Notes under the pieces: model-generated
What the model was told of the DNA's origin: nothing
What the model saw: only the letters and a program-made list of their open reading frames with translations
Databases searched by the model: none
Program-made: the position numbers and the translations under genes
NCBI GenBank assembly: GCA_910578745.1
Contig: CAJTSN010000027.1
Location: 5,099-22,102, forward strand
Reading direction: 5' to 3'
From: an uncultured Bacilli bacterium
Lineage (GTDB): Bacteria > Bacillota_I > Bacilli_A > RF39 > UBA660
DNA: 17,004 nucleotides
Part shown: positions 4,293 through 13,787 of the stretch, one piece after another
Position numbering within the stretch: position 1 is the stretch's first letter
Layout of the letters: every line of letters starts with the position of its first letter

Positions 4293-4607
4293 TCACTTTA
4301 AATCATCAATATGTTTTTTTAATTGATAAGCTCCTTCTCCAAGAATAATTTTAAGTTGATTATCAATTTCAACAATACCTTGTGCTCCCAATTTTTGAAT
4401 GGCATCTTTATTCACAATCTCTACATTTTTAAGAGTAACAATAAATCGAGACTTATTGACTTCATAACGAATAATATTATCTTTTCCACCTAAATAAGTC
4501 ACTAGTTTATTTACTTCAAATTGAAAATCTTTCTTTTTTGATTTTATAATTGCAATTGCAACGATCAATAAAACAAAAGCAATGATTATATATTGTATAT
4601 ATTCCAT
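4293..4607 (-). CDS. Small membrane-anchored protein with a PTS EIIB (glucose-family)-like domain that lacks the phospho-cysteine
   Basis: There is one N-terminal TM helix (IIIAFVLLIVAIAII). LGGKDNIIRYEVNKSRFIVTLKNV...LGAQGIVE...LKIILG then parallels the EIIB pattern 'GGKENI..LDACITRLRV....LKKLGAAGVV...VQAIFG'. The active-site Cys position is Asn. Confidence 0.6.
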   Translation of the reverse strand: MEYIQYIIIAFVLLIVAIAIIKSKKKDFQFEVNKLVTYLGGKDNIIRYEVNKSRFIVTLKNVEIVNKDAIQKLGAQGIVEIDNQLKIILGEGAYQLKKHIDDLK

Positions 4608-4761
4608 AGAATCACCACTATTATTATACTATACTTTTTTTCTATTTAATAGTTTTTTTTCTAAATTTTTAGAGCTTGTCCTTTTTTCAGTTCCTTTTTA
4701 AATTTTCTATTCTTTTTGTTTTAAAAGAATTCTAATAAATATGCTCTATGAATAATAAATT

Positions 4762-4794
4762 TTTTCAAAAAAAGATTTCGATTTTAAGCGAAAC
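4762..4794 (-). terminator. Weak intrinsic terminator after the metallopeptidase-VWA gene
   Basis: The minus strand reads GTTTCG-CTTAAAAT-CGAAAT followed by CTTTTTTTG. The stem is short (5-6 bp) and AT-rich, with a U-tract immediately after the stop at 4798. Confidence 0.35.
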
Positions 4795-4797
4795 CTA

Positions 4798-6276
4798 TTA
4801 CCTTTTTCTTTGTCCTACCTCATACTGATGTAATCTTGATAGTGCACTTTCATTTATATATATTACCTTTCCACCCACTGGATTTATTTTACAATTACCA
4901 AATACAATCCAGATTGCATCTATTTGCGTATTTGGCATATCTGCCCATCCATCCGTAAAAATCACCTTATTTTCCACTCTCCTAGTAAAAGCACCTACAG
5001 CTGCATTAAAATCAGTGCCTCCACCGCCATAAAAGGTTAAATTATCAATATCGGATTCATCTTTTATTTCTGTAAACCCATAGAATTTTGTATCAAAACA
5101 TCCTACCTTTACTTTCGAATTTTGCAATATATTTTTACATTCCCTTAAGAAATTTCTAAGAAGTATTTCATCAATAGAACCACTTGTATCCAACACAATT
5201 TCTGTTTCAGGTTTTGGCATTTCTTCTAGATAGGGTGTTACTACACCATCCTCAATTCCAGCGTTTTCATATGACCAATCGATAGCATAATTTACGGCTT
5301 CTTTTAACAATATTCTCCAATCAATTAAGGGTTCAGATATTCCAATAGATGTTATATTTCTTATATTCTCATTTGCATCGTTGCTATGGCCATGTGACTG
5401 ACTTGCTAATGCATTTTTAAGTTCTTCTAGTTGCTTCTTACGTTCAACCTTATTTTGTCTAAAGGCCTCTTTCTCTCCCAATTGTACTATTTTTTGAATT
5501 TCATCATACCTTATGTTTTCTGACTCCAATTCTGGCTCTCTATCTACTTCCTTTTTTGTTTCCTGTGACGATTCTTGTTTTTCCTCTAACCTGTCGTTTG
5601 CACTTTTCTCTTTAGAAGGATTTTCCTCTTCTTTACTTTTTCTCTCGGTTGCTTTTTTCCACATAGAATGTGTATCGTGTCCAACATCATGATATTCATT
5701 CGTATCTTCCCTAACATCTGATTGTGTCATTTTTTCAGATGTCTGATTTGGTTCTTTTTGACCATCCTGCTTTTGTTGATTCTCATTATTTGAGGAACTT
5801 TGTTCGAATTGATTTTCTCCCTGTTGTGTCTTATTTTCTGCATCCACATTTTTTTGATTTTCGCTTGAACTATTCTTTTCTTGTTTCTTTTTCTCCTCTA
5901 ATAGTATCTGATATAATTCTTCTGCGTCATAGTCAATTGCTCCTTGAATATCAACTCCTCCTTTTGACAAAGGTAGGCCATCGTGTTTTAAAAAAGCATT
6001 GATAACGGCATCCGTTGCCATATTCCATAAATCTGGGTCTTTTCCAACACTTCTCCATATATGATTAAAAGCAATATGACAGATTTCATGGGCAAGTATA
6101 AATACCTGTTCCATAATAGGAATAGAGGAAAAAAAGGTAGGATTATAGTATACAACCTCTCCATCCGTTCCTGCTGTTTCTAAAGACATTTCACTTTTAA
6201 ATTTACAATGAGCAACTACACTCCCAAAAAAAGGATACTTTACTAACACTTTATTTATAACTGTCTCTATATTCAT
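4798..6276 (-). CDS. Metallopeptidase-like (HExxH, DUF2201_N-type) plus VWA-like (DUF2201-type) protein with a long disordered linker
   Basis: The N-terminus reads PFFGSVV...TAGTDGEVVYYNPTFF...LAHEICHIAFNH...WNMATDAVINAF. The C-terminal VWA has an intact MIDAS-type set: DTSGS, GGGGTDF and FTDGWAD. I set the start at the ATG at 6276 (AGGAAA 8 nt upstream). The ORF-track start at 6321 has no RBS and overlaps the upstream gene. Confidence 0.8.
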   Translation of the reverse strand: MNIETVINKVLVKYPFFGSVVAHCKFKSEMSLETAGTDGEVVYYNPTFFSSIPIMEQVFILAHEICHIAFNHIWRSVGKDPDLWNMATDAVINAFLKHDGLPLSKGGVDIQGAIDYDAEELYQILLEEKKKQEKNSSSENQKNVDAENKTQQGENQFEQSSSNNENQQKQDGQKEPNQTSEKMTQSDVREDTNEYHDVGHDTHSMWKKATERKSKEEENPSKEKSANDRLEEKQESSQETKKEVDREPELESENIRYDEIQKIVQLGEKEAFRQNKVERKKQLEELKNALASQSHGHSNDANENIRNITSIGISEPLIDWRILLKEAVNYAIDWSYENAGIEDGVVTPYLEEMPKPETEIVLDTSGSIDEILLRNFLRECKNILQNSKVKVGCFDTKFYGFTEIKDESDIDNLTFYGGGGTDFNAAVGAFTRRVENKVIFTDGWADMPNTQIDAIWIVFGNCKINPVGGKVIYINESALSRLHQYEVGQRKR

Positions 6277-6286
6277 AGTATATTTC

Positions 6287-6688
6287 CTAAATTTGAGCAC
6301 ATAAGGAATATACTTCCTCATTCATTTTATGCATTCTTAAATCAGAACAAGTGGCAACAACAAAACAATTTTTAGGTAAATCAAAAGTACTCACTTTTTT
6401 ATATTTTAATATTTCCACAAATTTTGTTTGTTCTTCTAAAGCAATTTCATTAATATTTTCAATCACTAAAATCACAGGACCTAATTTACTTTTCTCTAGT
6501 AATGTTTTATACCATTCTGGAGGACAAAATTCTATATTCTCATAGTGTCCATTTAATTGAAGTCTATCTATATCTGCTTTTATAATAACCGCATTATCAA
6601 AAACAGTAGCAGGGATGTTTTGAATTAATAAAGGAGAGATGCCAGATTGCATATAATTTTCTAATAAACTTAATCTATCTTTATTCAT
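6287..6688 (-). CDS. Degenerate AAA-like protein with no P-loop, a paralog of the core of the upstream ATPase
   Basis: The 133-aa ORF has GGAGG 9 nt upstream, and its ATG overlaps the upstream stop (ATGA). It aligns by eye with the AAA core of the 6685-8295 product. PPEWYKTLLEK matches PPTWYSKVKEK, VILVIENINEI matches IHIIFFDELTNA, LPKNCFVVATCS matches IPSNARIVAAGN, and LLIQNIPAT occupies the place of FLHGRSSEGKS. Confidence 0.6.
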   Translation of the reverse strand: MNKDRLSLLENYMQSGISPLLIQNIPATVFDNAVIIKADIDRLQLNGHYENIEFCPPEWYKTLLEKSKLGPVILVIENINEIALEEQTKFVEILKYKKVSTFDLPKNCFVVATCSDLRMHKMNEEVYSLCAQI

Positions 6689-8295
6689 CGTCTTATTCCT
6701 CCTTGGGTATTCATTTCAGACATTTGTATTTCGAGGAGTCGCTCTAATCTGGATTCATCGCCATGTACCCACATCGATTCAAAAGCCGCTCTTGGCTCTG
6801 CGCCCACTCGTTTCATAAAATCTCTTACTATTTCAAAATGTTCATCATCAACAGAAGATAAACCAACAGCGGTTGCAAATTTCTGTGATACATCCATTTC
6901 GAAGTCCCATTCTGAGTAATTATGATGAATTACATCTTCAATACTTATAACTTGAAGTTTTGTAAATGCAACAAAATCTCTTGTTAACTCCTCTCCTATT
7001 AATGCACGAAGCATTTCTGGTTTTTTCGTCTTATAAAGCACTTTGGAAGCCATCTCCCATTTTCTTGGATCTGCATTTGGCTTATCTCCTGTATAAGGGG
7101 TTCTTAGTACATCATAACCACTATAGGATTTATAAGCCACATAAGCATAAATTGCTGGATGAATAAGGTTCTCTTTTTTTTCCTCTTTATAATCCACCCT
7201 CTCATATTTGTCTCTTGGCGTAGATGCCCATTTTAACCAACTATCTACGGTTGTTTGAATGTATACGTGTGCGAATCGATTAAATAAAGGCTCTGCCATT
7301 TGATTAGCGGCTAACGAGTCATTCAAATCATTCCCAGCGGCCACAATTCTTGCATTCGAAGGAATCTTCCATTTTCCATCTACTTCTCCATCTAACACAA
7401 TATTAAACGCCATTCCCTGAATAGAAGGAAGTGCATTTGTAAGTTCATCAAAAAATATGATATGGATTTTATTTGGTTCTTTTTCACATTTTTCCTTTAC
7501 TTTGCTATACCATGTTGGTGGCACATCGATCATTTCCCCTGTTTGTGCATTATATACACTTTTTCCATTTAAACTATTCGGTGTTGCATTTCTCATATAT
7601 ATAATTTCACAGTCTGGATCAAATTGTTTTACTCTTGCTGACTTACCCTCACTTGATCTACCATGTAGAAACACCGAAATGTTACTTTCTATAGCCCCTT
7701 TAATAATCTCTTCTTCCGATACATTCCCAAAATCAAAATGATAGGGATTTTCTTTTCGTAGTTGTTTTCGTTCATCTGAAATTTCAACTTGCTTTGTGTC
7801 CTTTTGTACATAGACTGTATCAGCCATTATTTCCTTTGCAAAACAAGTATCCATAAATTGTTTAATATCTGTTTTATCAAAGTTTCCATCATAATTCCTT
7901 TGATTTTTAAATTGAACTCCTGAAAATATAATTTTTTTACAAAGTGCAATATTCGTTCTTTCATCTACTAACCAAATAATTGGTTCAACTTCTACCCAAC
8001 ATTCACTTCCAAATTGAACCGATCTTCCATTGGATAGAAACTGACCATCACAGTTTTCATCAACAATAAAACGAATGTATTTTTTTCCATTATATTCATA
8101 TTCTACATGCTTTCTAGCTTTAAATTTTATATCTGTATCTCGATAGCTGACACAATCGGTTGTATAACTTTTTCCTGTTGTTTTTAAATTACCTCTTTTA
8201 TAGAATTCCTCTAATATACGTGCGTCATTATCACTTACTATAGTCTGAGGATATTCTCCATAATTAACTTCCTTAATTCCATTAGCGACTCTCAC
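6685..8295 (-). CDS. MoxR/AAA_5-like ATPase body of the DGR target. As an isolated ORF it has only a GTG start and no convincing RBS.
   Basis: Walker A is GRSSEGKS (7639-7662) and Walker B is IIFFDE (7444-7461). The sensor-1-like segment is RIVAAGND, followed by EPLFNRFAHVYI. Upstream of the AAA core lies a beta-rich segment (YGEYPQ...WVEVEPIIWLVDE). The frame is open and continuous upstream through the VR to the TGA at 8395-8397. Confidence 0.8.
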   Translation of the reverse strand: MRVANGIKEVNYGEYPQTIVSDNDARILEEFYKRGNLKTTGKSYTTDCVSYRDTDIKFKARKHVEYEYNGKKYIRFIVDENCDGQFLSNGRSVQFGSECWVEVEPIIWLVDERTNIALCKKIIFSGVQFKNQRNYDGNFDKTDIKQFMDTCFAKEIMADTVYVQKDTKQVEISDERKQLRKENPYHFDFGNVSEEEIIKGAIESNISVFLHGRSSEGKSARVKQFDPDCEIIYMRNATPNSLNGKSVYNAQTGEMIDVPPTWYSKVKEKCEKEPNKIHIIFFDELTNALPSIQGMAFNIVLDGEVDGKWKIPSNARIVAAGNDLNDSLAANQMAEPLFNRFAHVYIQTTVDSWLKWASTPRDKYERVDYKEEKKENLIHPAIYAYVAYKSYSGYDVLRTPYTGDKPNADPRKWEMASKVLYKTKKPEMLRALIGEELTRDFVAFTKLQVISIEDVIHHNYSEWDFEMDVSQKFATAVGLSSVDDEHFEIVRDFMKRVGAEPRAAFESMWVHGDESRLERLLEIQMSEMNTQGGIRR

Positions 8296-8339
8296 TCCGT
8301 TCGAGGAGATAGATGAGATTAATAAAGAATAAGGTAAAG

Positions 8340-8413
8340 CGGGACGAGCCCCAACAGAACGTCCCGTAACATGGGAGCAGTCCCTATTCCCATTTCAGCC
8401 AACGGCGCGCGCG
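8340..8413 (-). repeat. DGR variable repeat (VR)
   Basis: It aligns base for base with 9922-9995 (offset +1582). There are 13 mismatches, at 8357, 8358, 8363, 8364, 8373, 8375, 8376, 8377, 8382, 8383, 8396, 8399 and 8400. Every one lies opposite a plus-strand T of the TR, which is a coding-strand A. No mismatch occurs at the other 51 positions. Confidence 0.92.
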
Positions 8414-8622
8414 TCATTATCACCATCAGATGACTTTGTCCACCAACAACCTGCTCTATCCTTTCCACTACATCCTTCATTTGTGTAAGAATTTGATGCT
8501 ACATAACCTCCTAATAAAATAGAAAAGTCTGTTATAGCACATGCTGTTCCATACTTTTTCATTATATCTAACGAATTGCTTCCAAATATCTGTTCCTCCG
8601 TTAGAAATGTAAAACTATTCAT
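8395..8622 (-). CDS. N-terminal fragment of the DGR target (variable ligand-binding-type domain), truncated by a stop generated inside the VR
   Basis: The 75-aa ORF has a good RBS. FLTEEQIFG...ACAITDFS...GCWWTKSS...ARAVG followed downstream in frame by VGARPAL resembles the '...WWLRS....A..V..G......GVRPAL' C-terminal half of lectin-like domains that are commonly DGR-diversified in Bacillota. This resemblance is from memory and has not been searched. Confidence 0.65.
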   Translation of the reverse strand: MNSFTFLTEEQIFGSNSLDIMKKYGTACAITDFSILLGGYVASNSYTNEGCSGKDRAGCWWTKSSDGDNDARAVG

Positions 8623-8674
8623 ATATATATCACCACTTTTATTTTAACATATTTTCCCATTATTTGACAATTTT

Positions 8675-9697
8675 TTATTTAAAAGGGAAAGTATCCATTT
8701 TTAGCCTTTCACTTTCTTGTGTATTCTTAATATGATTATAAAAAGCATTTTTTCGAATATATACATATTCATCATCAACGATTCCCTTATTATATAATTT
8801 GTTTACTGTTTTTAAATGTTTTCTCATTCGCTGTTTTGAAGTATACCTTAACTTCACAATGATTTTCCCTGTAGTTGTTAAAATATGACGATACCCTAAA
8901 AAATCGACTCCATTTTTAACCATTCCTATTTGTGTCTTATCATTTAATTCTAAATTCAATACATTTTTACATAATTTTTCGATTTCCTGTTTACATAAAG
9001 CTAAATATTTTTTATCTCTATGAGGTAATATCATATCATCCATATAACGTACATATCCACGAATTCTCAAACTTTCTTTTATAAAGTGATCCACTTTATT
9101 TAAATATAAAAGAGCAAACCACTGACTTGATTGATTTCCTAAAGGCAAACCCACACTTGCATGATCTGGTTGTTCCTGAATCAATTTCCTTATCATCCAC
9201 ATCTCATCCTCTGAAAAATGGATTTCTTCTAAAAGGTGAATCAATATATCATGATTTATACTGGGAAAATACTTACGTATATCACATTTTAAAAAATATA
9301 TATTATTATTATTTTCTCCTCTATATTCTTTTCTTAAAAAAGCATGCAATCTTTCTATAGCAAAATTTGTTCCCTTTCCTTTTCGACATGCACAATTGTC
9401 ATATACTAATCTTTTATCTATTTTAGGTTTTAAACAAGCATCACAAAAACATCGAATGACCACTCGATCTTTAAAGGGAAGCGCTTCTATTAATCGTTCT
9501 TTAGGTTCATAAACATAAAATTTTTTATATTTTCCTAATGTATACTTTTTTGTAACCAATTCTTTATGTAGAGTATTTAAATTAAGCGCTAAAGCGGTTT
9601 CGAATCGAATGACCTCTCCCTTATGTTGCTTAGACATCCTACAATTTTTATAAGCTTCATTCAAATTTTCAAAAGTAAAAATTTCATCCAAATGCAT
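8675..9697 (-). CDS. DGR-type reverse transcriptase
   Basis: RT motifs are present: EPKERLIEALPFKDRVV, FLKCDIRKYFPSI, the catalytic YVRYMDDMIL, and FLGYR. Motif 4 reads LPLGNQSSQWFA, the 'GxxxSQ' form typical of DGR RTs rather than the 'QGxxxSP' form of group II intron and retron RTs. The size is 340 aa and there is no X/En or extra domain. I set the start at the ATG at 9697 (GGAGG 5 nt upstream) rather than 9736. Confidence 0.9.
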   Translation of the reverse strand: MHLDEIFTFENLNEAYKNCRMSKQHKGEVIRFETALALNLNTLHKELVTKKYTLGKYKKFYVYEPKERLIEALPFKDRVVIRCFCDACLKPKIDKRLVYDNCACRKGKGTNFAIERLHAFLRKEYRGENNNNIYFLKCDIRKYFPSINHDILIHLLEEIHFSEDEMWMIRKLIQEQPDHASVGLPLGNQSSQWFALLYLNKVDHFIKESLRIRGYVRYMDDMILPHRDKKYLALCKQEIEKLCKNVLNLELNDKTQIGMVKNGVDFLGYRHILTTTGKIIVKLRYTSKQRMRKHLKTVNKLYNKGIVDDEYVYIRKNAFYNHIKNTQESERLKMDTFPFK

Positions 9698-9921
9698 ACT
9701 TTCCTCCAAAAAATAAACACCCCCTATAACGCACAAAGAGTCATCTTACTCATTGCTTGTGTGAGTGTTCCTATATTTTTCCATCGCATCTTTGAAAATA
9801 CATCTTTTAGCGATTAGAAAAGAAGAAAATTCCTTCACCTTACAATACGGATATATTTTTCTTAAAATATATTTCTCTGATTTGTTTTCTGAATTTTATA
9901 AAAATTCCTTCAAAAGTGAAT
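9698..9921 (-). ncRNA. TR-to-RT spacer, probably part of the non-coding DGR template RNA
   Basis: It has no credible ORF on the minus strand. It lies between the TR and the RT start, where DGR spacer RNA is located in characterised elements. Several AT-rich hairpins are visible, for example GAAUUUU-UAU-AAAAUUC and AUCGC...GCGAU. Confidence 0.45.
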
Positions 9922-9995
9922 CGGGACGAGCCCCAACATTACGTTTCGTAACATTGTTTCAGTTTCTATTCCCATTTTAGTTAACGGCGCGCGCG
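9922..9995 (-). repeat. DGR template repeat (TR)
   Basis: It is a non-coding copy of the VR with 23 coding-strand adenines. In the target frame it reads A R A V N * N G N R N * N N V T K R N V G A R P and is rich in AAC/AAT codons. It is bounded by CGCGCGCGCC at the 5' end and GGGGCTCGTCCC at the 3' end. Confidence 0.92.
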
Positions 9996-10071: not shown

Positions 10072-10665
10072 CTAATTTCTTTTTCTCCATCTTTCATCAT
10101 CGCTTTTCTTCCAAGCAATAACTAAATTAATTGTTTCTGCTAATTGCATAGAGATTTGATTATATTGCTTCTTTAAAATACAACCTGAACTCTCAGCAAC
10201 CATTGCTATATATCCAAGCAATTTCAATTTCACAATCGCTTCTTTTTGATAATGTTCCCTTTTTACTTTGTTTGAAGCAGAGTCCATTCGAATAAAATTT
10301 GCTTCTAATAAACACTCTATAGTATCTAAACAGTAATTCTGCATCCGATTTACAAATACACCTCTAAATTTCTTTGGAGATTTTTCTGTAACTGTAATTA
10401 CATAAGCACACAACTTTTTTGCTACTGTAATAACAATTAAATCATTTGCATTAGAAGGAATTTTATCAATTATTTTTAACTCTTCCTCTTCTACTTTCAT
10501 TTGTTCTCTCATCTTTTTTTGATTAAACTTTTCATGCGTAGCAACAGCGATTCCTTTTTTTGTTGCAATAACATCTTCAATTTCATTGGCTGTTCTTTCT
10601 ACAATCTCTATTTTTTTAGGAATTTTTAAATTATTATCACGACTGACTTGCAACACATGTATCAC
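10072..10665 (-). CDS. avd: Avd-like accessory variability determinant (four-helix-bundle family). The start is uncertain.
   Basis: The C-terminal segment of about 130 aa (KKFRGVFVNRM...LLEANFIR...KREHYQKEAIVKLKLLGYIAMVAES..ILKKQYNQIS..LAETINLVIAWKKS) fits the Avd/four-helix-bundle pattern. The gene sits immediately upstream of the TR. The ORF-track start is a GTG without a well-spaced RBS. Internal ATGs (codons 52 and 56) would give a more typical size of about 140 aa. Confidence 0.75.
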   Translation of the reverse strand: MIHVLQVSRDNNLKIPKKIEIVERTANEIEDVIATKKGIAVATHEKFNQKKMREQMKVEEEELKIIDKIPSNANDLIVITVAKKLCAYVITVTEKSPKKFRGVFVNRMQNYCLDTIECLLEANFIRMDSASNKVKREHYQKEAIVKLKLLGYIAMVAESSGCILKKQYNQISMQLAETINLVIAWKKSDDERWRKRN

Positions 10666-12130: not shown

Positions 12131-12156
12131 ACAAAAAAAGAGAAACAATTCTCTTT
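12131..12156 (-). terminator. Intrinsic terminator after the pilin-like gene
   Basis: The minus strand reads AAGAGAA-TTGT-TTCTCTT (12155..12138), a perfect 7-bp stem, followed by TTTTTTG. Confidence 0.7.
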
Positions 12157-13787
12157 TATTTAATCGTTATAACAGGTCTAAAACCAATTTTCAAATTGGC
12201 AGAACCATTTGTTCTATCATATGCATATAGTCCACTCGTTGTATTTCCAGAATAGTTTCCACCACGAACCATATATTTATTTGTAGCATCTACCATATTA
12301 TGCTTATCTTCATACTTTCCAAATAATGCCCCACCAGCACAATTGGCTTCTGTATTTAAACACGCTTTATTCGGGTAATAATCGACATATTTATTATCTA
12401 TAGCCGTTCCCCCTAAATTCAAAGATGTTCCATTATAGGCCATAACAAATTCTTCGTATCCTCCCGACATATCATAAATACCTGTGATATTCCCAGAAGT
12501 AGTTCCACTCATAGAAGCTTGACTCGCATAATTATTCTTGCACTCCGTAGAAACACTTCCACCAGCATTTCCAGAAGTACAACCTGTTATTGTTCCTCTA
12601 TTATAGTAATTATTAAGCCATATTTCTTCCTTTTTTCCATAATTAGAATCGGTTAGGTAAGCAACAGCCCCCCACTCCACATTCTTCATAAGATGGGTAT
12701 CAACTTGTGCAGAATTTAACCCAAATGAATCTGTAGAAGTAGCCATATTTTGTGTAACTTTAAAAGCATTAGCAAGGGATATACCTGACCAAGAATTTCT
12801 ACCTGGAACGGTTACTAAATCAATATGTGTTTTATTACAACTTGCTATATCTGGCGTTTGAAAGCAACTTGTATTAATAGGAGCACTCGCCTCGAATTTC
12901 GCAACCCACATTCCTTCTAACTGCTTTCCACCAAATTGAAAAGCGGGATGAATTCGATAGCCACTCGTTGGTGAAGTCTGTGTTGTTTTAATAAAGCGAA
13001 TAGCAAAACCATTTCCTTCTTGCTTATACTCATATCGTGGAATCCATACATACATTCCTGTTACATCATCTAAACTAATTTTAGTTCCTGGAACAGCTCT
13101 TTGATAATAAGATCTTGCATGTTTTGCATTTCCATCTAGGCAAGTTACTCCCTGTCTAGACTCACAATCAGACTTATTCTTAGAAAATGTCATCGCATTT
13201 GCCCATTTCTTTTCTCCATAGTTATACCAAGCTGTCGTCTTATCGGCTATAACCCAGTAACCTTTATCTTCCCTATACACAACTGGCACTAATCCATCAA
13301 CTAAGGAAGGATAAATTCCATCTTGCAAAGTATTATCTTTATAAGATGGCTTTGGTTCTTTATTTACATCGGTTGCATTTGTACACTCAATATCTTCAGA
13401 CAAAACATATTCAAATTCATTAAACTCATTCGTCGTTGCATAAATAATTCGCTTTAAAAAATTTTTCTTTTCTTCCTCGGTTTTCCCATAATCAATATAA
13501 TCTTGTAATTTTTCTTCTTCTATCTTTCCAGCATCAATTAATTCTTTAATAGTAATACAATAACTTGCCCTCTCTTCAGGCCCTATATATAGTTTTTGAT
13601 AAGTATTCGTATCGCCACTAGTATAGCTATCAGCTGCATCATACAACATTTGCTTTGCTGTATCACTAATAGCCCCTCTTTTAGATGCTGTCAAATTTTG
13701 AATTTGTGGAAGAGCAACAATAATAACTAATCCCATGATTATGACTACTGCTAACATTTCTACTAAAGTAAATCCTCTTTTTCTCAT
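12156..13787 (-). CDS. Prepilin-type (type IV pilin/pseudopilin-like) protein with a large C-terminal FGE-sulfatase/C-type-lectin-like domain
   Basis: The N-terminus MRKRGFTLVEMLAVVIIMGLVII is a class III signal, with cleavage after G and Glu at +5. The C-terminal part has WVAKFEAS, VEWGAVAYL, GIYDMSGG and a terminal MVRGGNYSG...GFRPVI, resembling the 'RGG....GFR' end of FGE-like folds. Confidence 0.7.
   Translation of the reverse strand: MRKRGFTLVEMLAVVIIMGLVIIVALPQIQNLTASKRGAISDTAKQMLYDAADSYTSGDTNTYQKLYIGPEERASYCITIKELIDAGKIEEEKLQDYIDYGKTEEEKKNFLKRIIYATTNEFNEFEYVLSEDIECTNATDVNKEPKPSYKDNTLQDGIYPSLVDGLVPVVYREDKGYWVIADKTTAWYNYGEKKWANAMTFSKNKSDCESRQGVTCLDGNAKHARSYYQRAVPGTKISLDDVTGMYVWIPRYEYKQEGNGFAIRFIKTTQTSPTSGYRIHPAFQFGGKQLEGMWVAKFEASAPINTSCFQTPDIASCNKTHIDLVTVPGRNSWSGISLANAFKVTQNMATSTDSFGLNSAQVDTHLMKNVEWGAVAYLTDSNYGKKEEIWLNNYYNRGTITGCTSGNAGGSVSTECKNNYASQASMSGTTSGNITGIYDMSGGYEEFVMAYNGTSLNLGGTAIDNKYVDYYPNKACLNTEANCAGGALFGKYEDKHNMVDATNKYMVRGGNYSGNTTSGLYAYDRTNGSANLKIGFRPVITIK

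Follow-up and report, generated by a model that had tools for sequence, protein, structure and literature searches.

The stretch of DNA analysed here (the window) comprises 17,004 nucleotides from an uncultured Bacilli bacterium (GTDB lineage Bacteria; Bacillota_I; Bacilli_A; RF39; UBA660), positions 5,099 to 22,102 of contig CAJTSN010000027.1 in assembly GCA_910578745.1. Its minus strand carries a diversity-generating retroelement (DGR) whose parts stand in the order Avd accessory gene, template repeat (TR), reverse transcriptase (RT) gene and, after a 52-nt spacer, a target frame of 645 codons. In this frame the variable region (VR) lies close to the N-terminus and is followed by an AAA+ ATPase. 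The target is in turn followed, on the same strand, by the gene for a small protein, p133, and by a gene for a DUF2201 protein whose start lies at 6321 or 6276. The DGR is active on the 645-codon frame, and the fusion of a VR-bearing module to an ATPase is a genuine and recurrent architecture, common in uncultured gut Bacilli and apparently undescribed. The features of the locus, in window coordinates, are as follows.

10072-10665, minus: Avd-like DGR accessory protein, 197 aa, with an N-terminal extension (phrog_3206, E 3.5e-17)
9913-9995, minus: TR, 83 nt (direct repeat with the VR; codon alignment)
8675-9736, minus: DGR RT (RVT_1, E 6e-17; phrog_1423, E 7.5e-101)
8641-8670, minus: weak promoter-like site in the spacer between RT and target (TTGTCA, 18 nt, TG-TAAAAT; consensus scan only)
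6685-8622, minus: DGR target frame, 645 codons, with a DUF6273-like VR module, a linker, a MoxR-class AAA+ core and a helical C-terminal domain
8331-8413, minus: VR, codons 71-97, with a GC-rich IMH-like 3' end (GGGGCTCGTCCC, about 8340-8353)
8395-8397, minus: in-frame TGA at codon 76 of the target (from TR codon TAA, A to G)
7819-8622, minus: N-terminal module, codons 1-268, one compact domain in the structural model (AF2; DUF6273 matches in homologs)
7213-7737, minus: AAA+ alpha/beta core, codons ~296-470, with Walker A GRSSEGKS, Walker B IIFFDE and sensor-1 N431
6688-7212, minus: helical C-terminal region, codons ~471-645, lid and extra helices (secondary structure of the model; strongly conserved in the alignment)
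6287-6688, minus: p133, degenerate paralog of the AAA+ core of the ATPase, without Walker A and Walker B; its start overlaps the target stop (ATGA) (hhalign)
4798-6321, minus: DUF2201_N metallopeptidase, charged linker and DUF2201 von Willebrand factor A (VWA)-like domain (Pfam, phrog_1314)
4773-4796, minus: terminator-like hairpin with a T-run directly after the DUF2201 gene (consensus scan)

The hairpin at 4773-4796 is the probable end of the operon. In the promoter scan, the total of sites found in the region was not above the expectation from shuffled sequence in this AT-rich DNA.

Activity of the retroelement

The VR and the TR form an 83-nt direct repeat of 81% identity, in which 14 of the 16 mismatches fall at TR adenines on the coding strand. 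The two others lie after the GC-rich GGGGCTCGTCCC block; 3' of this shared block the VR has GCTTTACCT and the TR has GATTCACTT, and these two mismatches can be read as the difference between a putative initiation of mutagenic homing sequence (IMH) in the VR and its counterpart (IMH*) in the TR. No convincing hairpin was seen downstream of the VR. When eight VR alleles from the same species were compared with the TR, changes had occurred at 89 of 184 TR-adenine sites and at 1 of 176 non-adenine sites, a bias far beyond chance; adenine was thus retained at 52% of its sites. The TR itself was identical in the eight same-species loci from which it was recovered (the window, L089-L093 and others).

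The proteins tell the same story. A full-length relative of 645 aa (P0001) is 99% identical to the window protein, with the differences confined to residues 75-90, and ten further proteins of the species are identical outside the VR and have a different VR in every case, so that proteins and loci of this species vary in the VR alone. The window DGR is active, and the frame 8622-6685 is its target. The RT contains the motif LGNQSSQ (read from the translation), which fits the pattern (I/L)GxxxSQ that we take to be typical of DGR RTs. The matches of the Avd protein to NCBIfam DivGenRetAVD (E 1.8e-6) and to Pfam bAvd (E 4e-5) do not reach the curated cut-offs; the family phrog_3206, which it also matches, is annotated "Avd protein of DGR", and Avd is kept upstream of the RT in 19 related loci.

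One further locus of the species (L088, 2306-2501) has the Avd gene and then, about 195 nt on, a truncated target, without the RT and the 5' end of the target. This spacing would fit a deletion between TR and VR by repeat recombination, or an aberrant homing event. In the junction repeat the 5' part is mutated and the 3' part resembles the TR, whereas a simple TR-to-VR crossover would give the reverse.

The fusion gene and its homologs

The frame 8622-6685 translates to 645 codons with a single internal stop, the TGA at codon 76, and mechanical calling of open reading frames (ORFs) accordingly splits it into pieces of 75 aa and 536 aa. The homologs, however, are unbroken. A search of 5.8 billion proteins gave 3149 relatives of the target, and the best 120 of these are nearly all uninterrupted, ~640-690 aa long and aligned with 100% query coverage. 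An exhaustive HMMER search gave 672 clusters at 50% identity with E<1e-30, and a search of the GTDB species set gave 280 hits, mostly metagenome-assembled genomes (MAGs) of uncultured gut "Bacilli" or "Tenericutes" and including Coprobacillus sp. CAG:605 and Clostridium sp. CAG:417. Adenine-biased TR/VR pairs were found in 14 other species-level loci, with the VR at codons ~63-101 in every case and with Avd and RT directly upstream of the fusion gene. Because the homologs are uninterrupted and these 14 loci share both the N-proximal VR and the upstream Avd and RT genes, the fusion is genuine and the N-proximal VR is a recurrent architecture.

These results bear out the central claim of an earlier reading made from the sequence only (the sequence-only reading), namely that the DGR target is a single protein in which an N-proximal VR precedes an AAA+ ATPase; the VR, which that reading put at codons 70-95, was measured at codons 71-97. 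It had also asked whether homologs would show two genes with separate starts, and whether the fusion recurs next to DGR RTs; the homologs are unbroken, and the recurrence is seen in the 14 other loci.

It is highly improbable that the locus instead consists of two genes, one for a small VR protein and one for a separate ATPase, or that the TGA is read through under an alternative code. The split ORFs of the window would suggest two genes, as would the 536-aa proteins that gene callers report on many contigs. More than 100 homologs with one unbroken frame of ~645 aa rule out separate genes, however, and a full-length protein 99% identical to that of the window exists. The position of the break follows the VR allele, being found at codon 76, at codon 82 or at a frameshift, and the GTG at 8295 from which the second piece might start directly abuts its GGAG, with no spacer. 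Read-through is contradicted by codon usage in the window, as set out below.

In three homologs (P0002, P0003 and P0101; 909-922 aa) the 268-residue N-terminal module is duplicated in tandem within one protein, and about a dozen genomes carry the whole fusion gene in two to five successive copies that share a single p133-DUF2201 pair. Tandem copies or duplicated modules occur in L027, L033, L049, L058, L063, L064, L071, L072, L078, L083 and L084. The operon occurs both next to a DGR and without one nearby: among the 58 of 77 related loci that have enough upstream sequence, the RT is full in 19, present as a remnant in 6 and missing in 33, and no local TR was found within 10 kb in the loci that lack an RT. 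One related DGR-operon locus (L087, 281-1564 and neighbours) adjoins a Mob_Pre relaxase and helix-turn-helix genes, and another (L001, 6032-7775) adjoins IS605/TnpB, RhuM and HipA-like genes. This suggests that in other genomes the cassette sits in mobile or variable regions, unlike the surroundings of the window locus.

A stop codon in the VR and nonsense codons in the TR

An alternative genetic code for TGA was considered and rejected. Three of 15 ORFs in the window, the target among them, end in TGA; TGG encodes all 44 Trp residues of the 15 main ORFs; and, read with table 11, 88% of the window is occupied by intact ORFs. Since the standard code applies in the window, the codon-76 TGA is a true stop. 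It derives from the TR, which in the frame of the VR reads AAC TAA AAT GGG AAT AGA AAC TGA AAC AAT..., and in which the window TGA corresponds to the TAA with its first adenine changed to G. The stop was thus written by the DGR itself: both a TAA and a TGA stand in frame in the TR, and VR alleles with stops are common in the species. The sequence-only reading had treated the TGA as something to be replaced by a sense codon before structure prediction; it is better seen as a nonsense allele, the possibility of which is encoded in the TR.

Nine other samples of the species (L088-L096) each have a different VR, with a stop derived from the TAA, a stop derived from the TGA or a 1-nt indel. In the 90% identity cluster, truncated forms of 536 aa occur on at least 43 contigs and full-length forms on 16. 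From the TR and the adenine retention of 52%, about 78% of rewriting events would be expected to yield a stop. Nonsense codons in the TR are not restricted to this species. An in-frame TAA is found in the TRs of 6 of the 14 other loci, in 3 of them at the same codon as in the window (7 of 15, and 4 at the same codon, when the window is included); the loci are the window, L014, L015, L019, L023, L026 and L042. The VR has a stop in the window, L019 and L026 and a frameshift in L042.

In L006/L007 (P0001), L014 and L023 the VR codon opposite the TR TAA is GGG, AGA or CCG, with a first base other than T. Such a first base would fit derivation from AAA, the codon found in the TRs of L015 and L081, and hints at a TR polymorphism, a recent change of the TR or a second TR.

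In the usual description, TRs consist of AAY codons, which cannot mutate into nonsense codons. A TR that bears stops runs against this picture, and literature searches, here and below limited to open-access papers and preprints, returned no report of stop codons encoded in a TR.

The N-terminal module

When residues 1-268 were modelled alone, they formed one compact unit (AF2 predicted local distance difference test (pLDDT) 93.7, predicted template modelling score 0.92), and in the AlphaFold model a disordered linker (269-290) joins this module to the ATPase. The sequence-only reading had expected a C-type lectin or formylglycine-generating enzyme (FGE)-like domain in residues 1-110; the compact unit is instead the whole of residues 1-268, and Foldseek gave no lectin match. 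Indeed, a Foldseek search of the module against PDB and BFVD gave no match at E<0.001, where it should be kept in mind that Foldseek aligns sequentially, so that a circular permutation would hinder matching. A profile search of the N-terminal alignment against PDB sequences returned only spurious short hemopexin-like matches.

The family that does match is Pfam DUF6273 (PF19789; gathering cut-off 23.5 bits), a domain already known from DGR targets. The window protein and P0001 have no match to it, and several homologs do: P0096 scores 25.4 bits, P0002 27.3, P0213 34.4 and P0240 35.7, in each case over the C-terminal part of the profile only. In the close homologs, residues ~23-97 match DUF6273 positions ~103-169 of 172, with two proteins above the gathering score; in the distant fusions P0213 and P0240 the first ~125 residues match positions 53-171 (E ~1e-8). 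The homolog N-termini start at profile position ~53-100. In the proteins with tandem modules, the full profile (positions 5-170) spans the junction, beginning in the last part of one copy and ending in the first part of the following one. Three motifs found here at residues 122-265 (GEYPQ, IIWLVDE..ALCKKIIF and DIKQFMD..FAKEI) are ones that we take to open a canonical DUF6273 domain, and those at residues 4-96 (FTFLTEEQ, CAITDFSILLGG, CWWTKSS and GARPAL) are presumably ones that close it.

The canonical order, with the VR at the C-terminus, is thus not that of the window protein, whose VR occupies codons 71-97 of 645. The N-terminal module, whose first ~100 residues are equivalent to the C-terminal, VR-bearing portion of DUF6273, may be read as a DUF6273 domain in which the chain starts mid-domain, that is, a circular permutation; such a start would place the VR near the N-terminus of the protein while keeping it in its usual structural place. 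When the module was re-ordered (105-268 followed by 1-104) and compared with Pfam, the DUF6273 match was not extended beyond the C-terminal third, so the permutation, which is not proven, is argued from the order of the motifs and from the profile matches across tandem junctions. The VR module also occurs together with ankyrin or DUF4116 repeats.

The ATPase core and its cellular location

The full-length AlphaFold model has a mean pLDDT of 83.7, with the ATPase region mostly at 80-90, and it shows the layout that had been described from sequence, a beta-rich segment followed by a P-loop ATPase and a helical C-terminus. Its best PDB matches in Foldseek are NorQ (E ~1e-8, probability 1.0), CbbQ2 and RavA, with a target-normalised template modelling score of ~0.6; these three have E values of 1e-8 to 1e-6, and MCM proteins, of the same wider clade, come next. 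The match to phrog_1297 covers residues 305-617 (E 6e-39). The Walker A (G321/K327), Walker B (D392/E393) and sensor-1 (N431) residues are conserved in 35-39 of 42 homologs, depending on the position, so that the motifs GRSSEGKS and IIFFDE and the sensor-1 Asn quoted in the sequence-only reading are present and conserved; two candidate arginines, R449 and R520, are conserved across the 42 homologs as well. In the secondary-structure string of the model, strands 354-358 and 363-367 precede helix 370-381, and a short hairpin at ~413-420 precedes strand 424-430. These predicted hairpins stand where the helix-2 insert and the pre-sensor-1 hairpin would be expected.

The label "MoxR/AAA_5-like" is fair, and the ATPase can be assigned to the MoxR class because of the NorQ, CbbQ and RavA structural matches, the AAA_5 matches in homologs and the conserved catalytic motifs. 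The profile evidence that the earlier label called for is found in homologs; the window protein itself stays below threshold in Pfam (AAA_5 E 0.037; Sigma54_activat E 0.0036). AAA_5 is matched in 8 of 42 homologs (best E 4.4e-7) and AAA_3 in 1 of 42, and distant fusions reach AAA_5 at E 1.5e-12 over the whole profile (P0154). No STAND family (NACHT or NB-ARC) was matched, the matches being to AAA_5, Sigma54 and MoxR, and the putative sensor is N-terminal. Members of the ATPase family also carry other N-terminal regions, including a SWIM finger and a second AAA domain, a pattern suggestive of a scaffold that swaps its sensor modules.

The diversified module is almost certainly cytoplasmic, as judged from the lack of a hydrophobic segment and from the AAA+ identity of the protein. 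By a crude test, the Kyte-Doolittle maximum over 19 residues is 1.18 in the target and the N-terminus is not hydrophobic, in agreement with the earlier statement that there is no signal peptide or transmembrane segment; no 19-residue stretch averaging 1.6 or more occurs in any of the five proteins.

Operon partners and phage relatives

The order of fusion gene, p133 and DUF2201 gene is kept in almost all of the 77 related loci. The small protein p133 has no Pfam hit. Aligned by hhalign, it matches residues ~304-453 of the ATPase (probability 98%, E 2.1e-13), and it lacks the Walker A motif and has the DE of Walker B replaced. By this comparison p133 is a degenerate, catalytically dead copy of the AAA+ core of the neighbouring ATPase.

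The DUF2201 protein matches the Pfam families DUF2201_N and DUF2201 (E 1.8e-31 and 5.1e-13) as well as phrog_1314 (E 2e-62), and gave no hit among PDB sequences. It has an HExxH motif (HEICH), a charged low-complexity linker of ~180 residues, and a VWA-like domain with a sequence resembling a metal ion-dependent adhesion site (DTSGS...T...D). A VWA partner for the ATPase, as had been supposed, is therefore encoded two genes downstream and is conserved across loci. Because homologs align from residue 16 onward, the true start of the gene is probably M16, at 6276.

Both conserved enzymes have relatives in phages. N4-like and PA5oct-like phages have a row of genes for an ATPase, at least one small ORF and a protein named "metalloprotease" or, wrongly, "homing endonuclease". 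None of the phage records contains the N-terminal module; query coverage reaches at most ~49% and includes the ATPase part only. PHROGs and some phage records (L085, L086) give phrog_1314, a DUF2201 metallopeptidase-VWA family, the name "HNH endonuclease" or "homing endonuclease"; the domain content of the family suggests that this is a mis-annotation.

Relation to known systems

The closest published parallel is found in the VMAP ternary systems, composed of MoxR, vWA and VMAP proteins, of which ~80% in cyanobacteria and gammaproteobacteria are associated with a DGR and in which it is usually the vWA protein that carries the variable FGS domain as a fusion (Kaur et al., 2020, PMC7159879). This work was extended by Dore et al. 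(2024), and the DGR target was proposed to be a sensor that signals through MoxR (PMC10907252). The statement in the sequence-only reading that a variable sensor gating an NTPase had not been characterised for a MoxR-VWA module was therefore wrong, as DGR-linked MoxR-vWA systems had been published (PMC7159879, PMC10907252). Like the systems of Kaur, Burroughs, Iyer and Aravind (2020), the window operon has a DGR-diversified, putatively lectin-type binding domain in a system predicted to be cytoplasmic. Both combine a MoxR-class ATPase with a vWA protein and one more component, and a peptidase is often present as well. A logic of variable sensor, ATPase and effector has been proposed for both. 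They differ in most particulars. In the VMAP ternary systems the FGS or C-type lectin (CLec) domain is C-terminal on the vWA protein or is a separate protein, while in the window it is N-proximal and on the MoxR ATPase; the third component is VMAP or iSTAND rather than the dead AAA+ paralog p133; the peptidase is trypsin or caspase-like rather than a DUF2201_N HExxH domain fused to the VWA domain; and the VR domain is of the FGE type rather than the DUF6273 type. The hosts are multicellular cyanobacteria, actinobacteria and Chromatiales in the one case and small-genome gut Bacilli in the other.

Fusions of a CLec domain with an AAA ATPase are the commonest architecture of DGR targets in the candidate phyla radiation (CPR), according to Paul et al. 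(2017) as reported in PMC10907252. These targets ("UVR4/Midasin", category g1, PMC5758913) resemble the window protein in combining a P-loop or AAA ATPase and a VR in one polypeptide. In the CPR proteins, however, the ATPase motif is upstream and the VR is C-terminal, the reverse of the order seen here, and the partner genes and host lineage differ as well; this comparison is one of architecture. Only a handful of N-terminal VRs were recorded by Wu et al. (2018, PMC5758913), and most cellular DGR targets are membrane-anchored binders of extracellular substrates (Roux et al., 2021, PMC8144416). An N-terminal DUF6273 VR, in a predicted surface beta-hairpin, is found in the tentaclins, which are receptor-binding proteins of phages (PMC10743442). 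The tentaclins are extracellular tail proteins with Ig-like domains, whereas the window protein is a cytoplasmic ATPase, and their DUF6273 domain runs from position 1 of the profile, whereas the window-protein module starts at about position 53-100.

Among the structural relatives of the ATPase, the NorQ-NorD, CbbQ-CbbO and RavA-ViaA pairs (PMC9976466, PMC13036017, PMC6987120) also link an ATPase gene to the gene for a VWA protein with a flexible linker. They have neither a variable N-terminal module nor a DGR nor a metallopeptidase on the VWA partner, and their substrates belong to metal insertion or enzyme activation. The pairs of N4-like Schitoviridae and PA5oct-like jumbo phages have an ATPase and a metallopeptidase-VWA protein homologous to those of the window (E 6e-39 and 2e-62, respectively), with one or more small ORFs between them, as in the window. 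The phage ATPases are ~300-370 aa long and come without the N-terminal module and without a DGR.

No paper describing the window architecture was found in the literature searched, nor anything specific on DUF2201 or on this architecture in DGR surveys. What is apparently new is the position of the VR at the N-terminus, the fact that the MoxR subunit itself carries it, the apparently permuted DUF6273 module, the pairing with a dead AAA+ paralog and with a DUF2201 protein, and the occurrence in small-genome gut Bacilli. Published intracellular examples of DGR targets have been tied to multicellular bacteria or CPR, whereas the hosts here are unicellular gut Bacilli. With three genes and a DGR, a conserved ATPase and a hypervariable binder, the locus is a compact and tractable candidate for finding the ligands of an intracellular DGR sensor, and the phage ATPase-DUF2201 pair, widespread but uncharacterised, gains a first functional handle.

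Proposed function and alternatives

The observed DGR and its activity on the VR, the fusion, the domain identities and the conservation of the operon form the starting point of a model, to which a probability of roughly 0.55 may be given: a chromosomal DGR would feed a cytoplasmic variable sensor or adaptor mounted on a MoxR ATPase, within a machine for remodelling and proteolysis. The Avd-TR-RT cassette directly upstream rewrites codons ~71-94 of the first gene of a three-gene operon, the product of which carries a DUF6273-type variable module (residues 1-268), presumably ligand-binding, linked to a MoxR-class ATPase that looks catalytically competent. By analogy with NorQ-NorD, CbbQ-CbbO and RavA-ViaA, the ATPase would form a ring that docks the VWA protein. 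Such a ring would display several hypervariable modules, and these could bind a ligand in the cytoplasm, for which a protein of an invading element is the most plausible candidate. Driven by ATP hydrolysis, the ring would then remodel the ligand and pass it to the putative zinc metallopeptidase, or would switch the peptidase on. The DGR would supply ever-changing binding specificities; because the TR of this species has in-frame TAA and TGA codons, most rewriting events would also turn the gene off, and later rewriting could turn it on again. A part in conflicts with phages or with other mobile elements would be the most economical account of what this predicted machine does, since it would fit the presence of a DGR, sensors that are modular, paralogs in tandem, a patchy distribution and what has been proposed in print for DGR-linked MoxR-vWA systems.

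Several observations weigh against this model. Lytic phages often carry the ATPase-DUF2201 core, and defence of the host is therefore not necessarily what it basically does. PADLOC-DB 2.0 has no model that matches the ATPase, p133 or the DUF2201 protein, and the RT matches generic RT models only. The flanks of the window locus are housekeeping genes and not a defence island. The lectin fold of the VR module was unconfirmed by Foldseek and by the PDB sequence search. In 33 of the 58 informative loci the operon has no adjacent RT, and the module therefore needs no local DGR. Finally, roughly 70-73% of the listed same-species contigs have a truncated target, close to the ~78% expected without selection, which argues for weak selection to keep the gene intact.

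This last point also counts in favour of a rather unlikely alternative, in which the system is decaying: under relaxed selection the TR would have gained nonsense codons, the output of the DGR would be mostly null, the locus would be heading towards loss, and the TGA would be a pseudogene lesion. The TAA and TGA that stand in frame in the TR, the nine independent samples that each have another stop or frameshift allele, a truncated share of about 73% against the ~78% expected, the loss of the RT and the target 5' end in L088 through a deletion at the TR/VR junction, and the RT remnants in 6 of the 77 loci would all be consistent with decay. Set against it, the RT, Avd, TR, p133 and DUF2201 gene are all intact in the window and in the sampled relatives, the target outside the VR is perfectly conserved among strains, and full-length alleles with many different VRs persist. 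Moreover, the TAA occurs in 7 of 15 species-level TRs, in 4 at the same codon, despite a protein divergence of 50-70%, which is hard to explain as independent recent decay. The same recurrence would favour the converse idea, that the nonsense codons of the TR are adaptive: besides diversifying the target, the DGR would then act as a phase-variation switch that can be reversed, and this might, for instance, keep down the cost or self-reactivity of a protease-coupled intracellular binder. In its favour, too, the stops fall exactly at the two nonsense codons of the TR, the other parts of the DGR are intact so that an off allele could be rewritten, and TR-encoded stops had not been reported in the literature searched. 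A programmed switch is nonetheless quite unlikely, as the observed fraction of off alleles matches the neutral expectation and selection for switching is not needed to explain it. Through the TAA the DGR can also reach Trp, Phe, Tyr, Leu and Cys at a codon where aromatic residues are frequent, and this may be the sole benefit of the TAA; the non-T first base in L006, L014 and L023 hints at an AAA/TAA polymorphism of the TR rather than a fixed design.

A derivation from phages or mobile elements raises the further possibility that the module serves such an element, in superinfection exclusion, in competition between elements or in the takeover of host proteins, with the DGR tracking a variable host or rival factor. 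The phage-family matches of the ATPase (phrog_1297) and the DUF2201 protein (phrog_1314), the occurrence of ATPase, small ORF and metalloprotease as a triad in N4-like and jumbo phages, and the related loci that adjoin a Mob_Pre relaxase in one case and IS605/TnpB, RhuM and HipA genes in others point in this direction. However, no phage record holds the N-terminal module, the window locus is flanked by FtsY, RNase J, FtsW and YceD, and the locus is stably syntenic across samples of the species; this account, too, is quite unlikely. The sensor-and-remodelling model is preferred over these alternatives. Its boldest form, a widespread intracellular system of programmable binder, unfoldase and protease that acts as an adaptive-like defence and carries an on/off switch in its TR stops, is unlikely. 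If it were true, MoxR ring subunits rewritten by a DGR would direct a tethered VWA-metallopeptidase at changing cytoplasmic targets, such as phage proteins; unicellular, small-genome gut Bacilli would have an adaptive-like defence by targeted remodelling or proteolysis; and the TR stops would be a reversible switch that limits cost or self-reactivity.

Neighbourhood and other observations

The window has a GC content of ~30%, and the operon is flanked by housekeeping chromosomal genes encoding FtsY, RNase J, a histidine kinase, FtsW/RodA and YceD. Identical loci were found in mouse-gut metagenomes and MAGs. No RNA family was matched in the window by Rfam at gathering thresholds. No second VR matching the window TR was found within the window. 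A 543-aa protein encoded at 12156-13787 (minus strand) has a type IV pilin-like N-terminal methylation motif, and its C-terminus (...NLKIGFRPVITIK) resembles the G-x-RP ending of DGR-type lectin domains. A 55-nt direct repeat of 73% identity has one copy at 4611-4665, upstream of an EIIB-like gene (104 aa, 4293-4607), and the other at 8629-8683, upstream of the target. Both copies hold a ribosome-binding-like element, GGTGAT, and the copy next to the target also holds the promoter-like site; the repeat could be a shared regulatory sequence or a chance match in AT-rich DNA.

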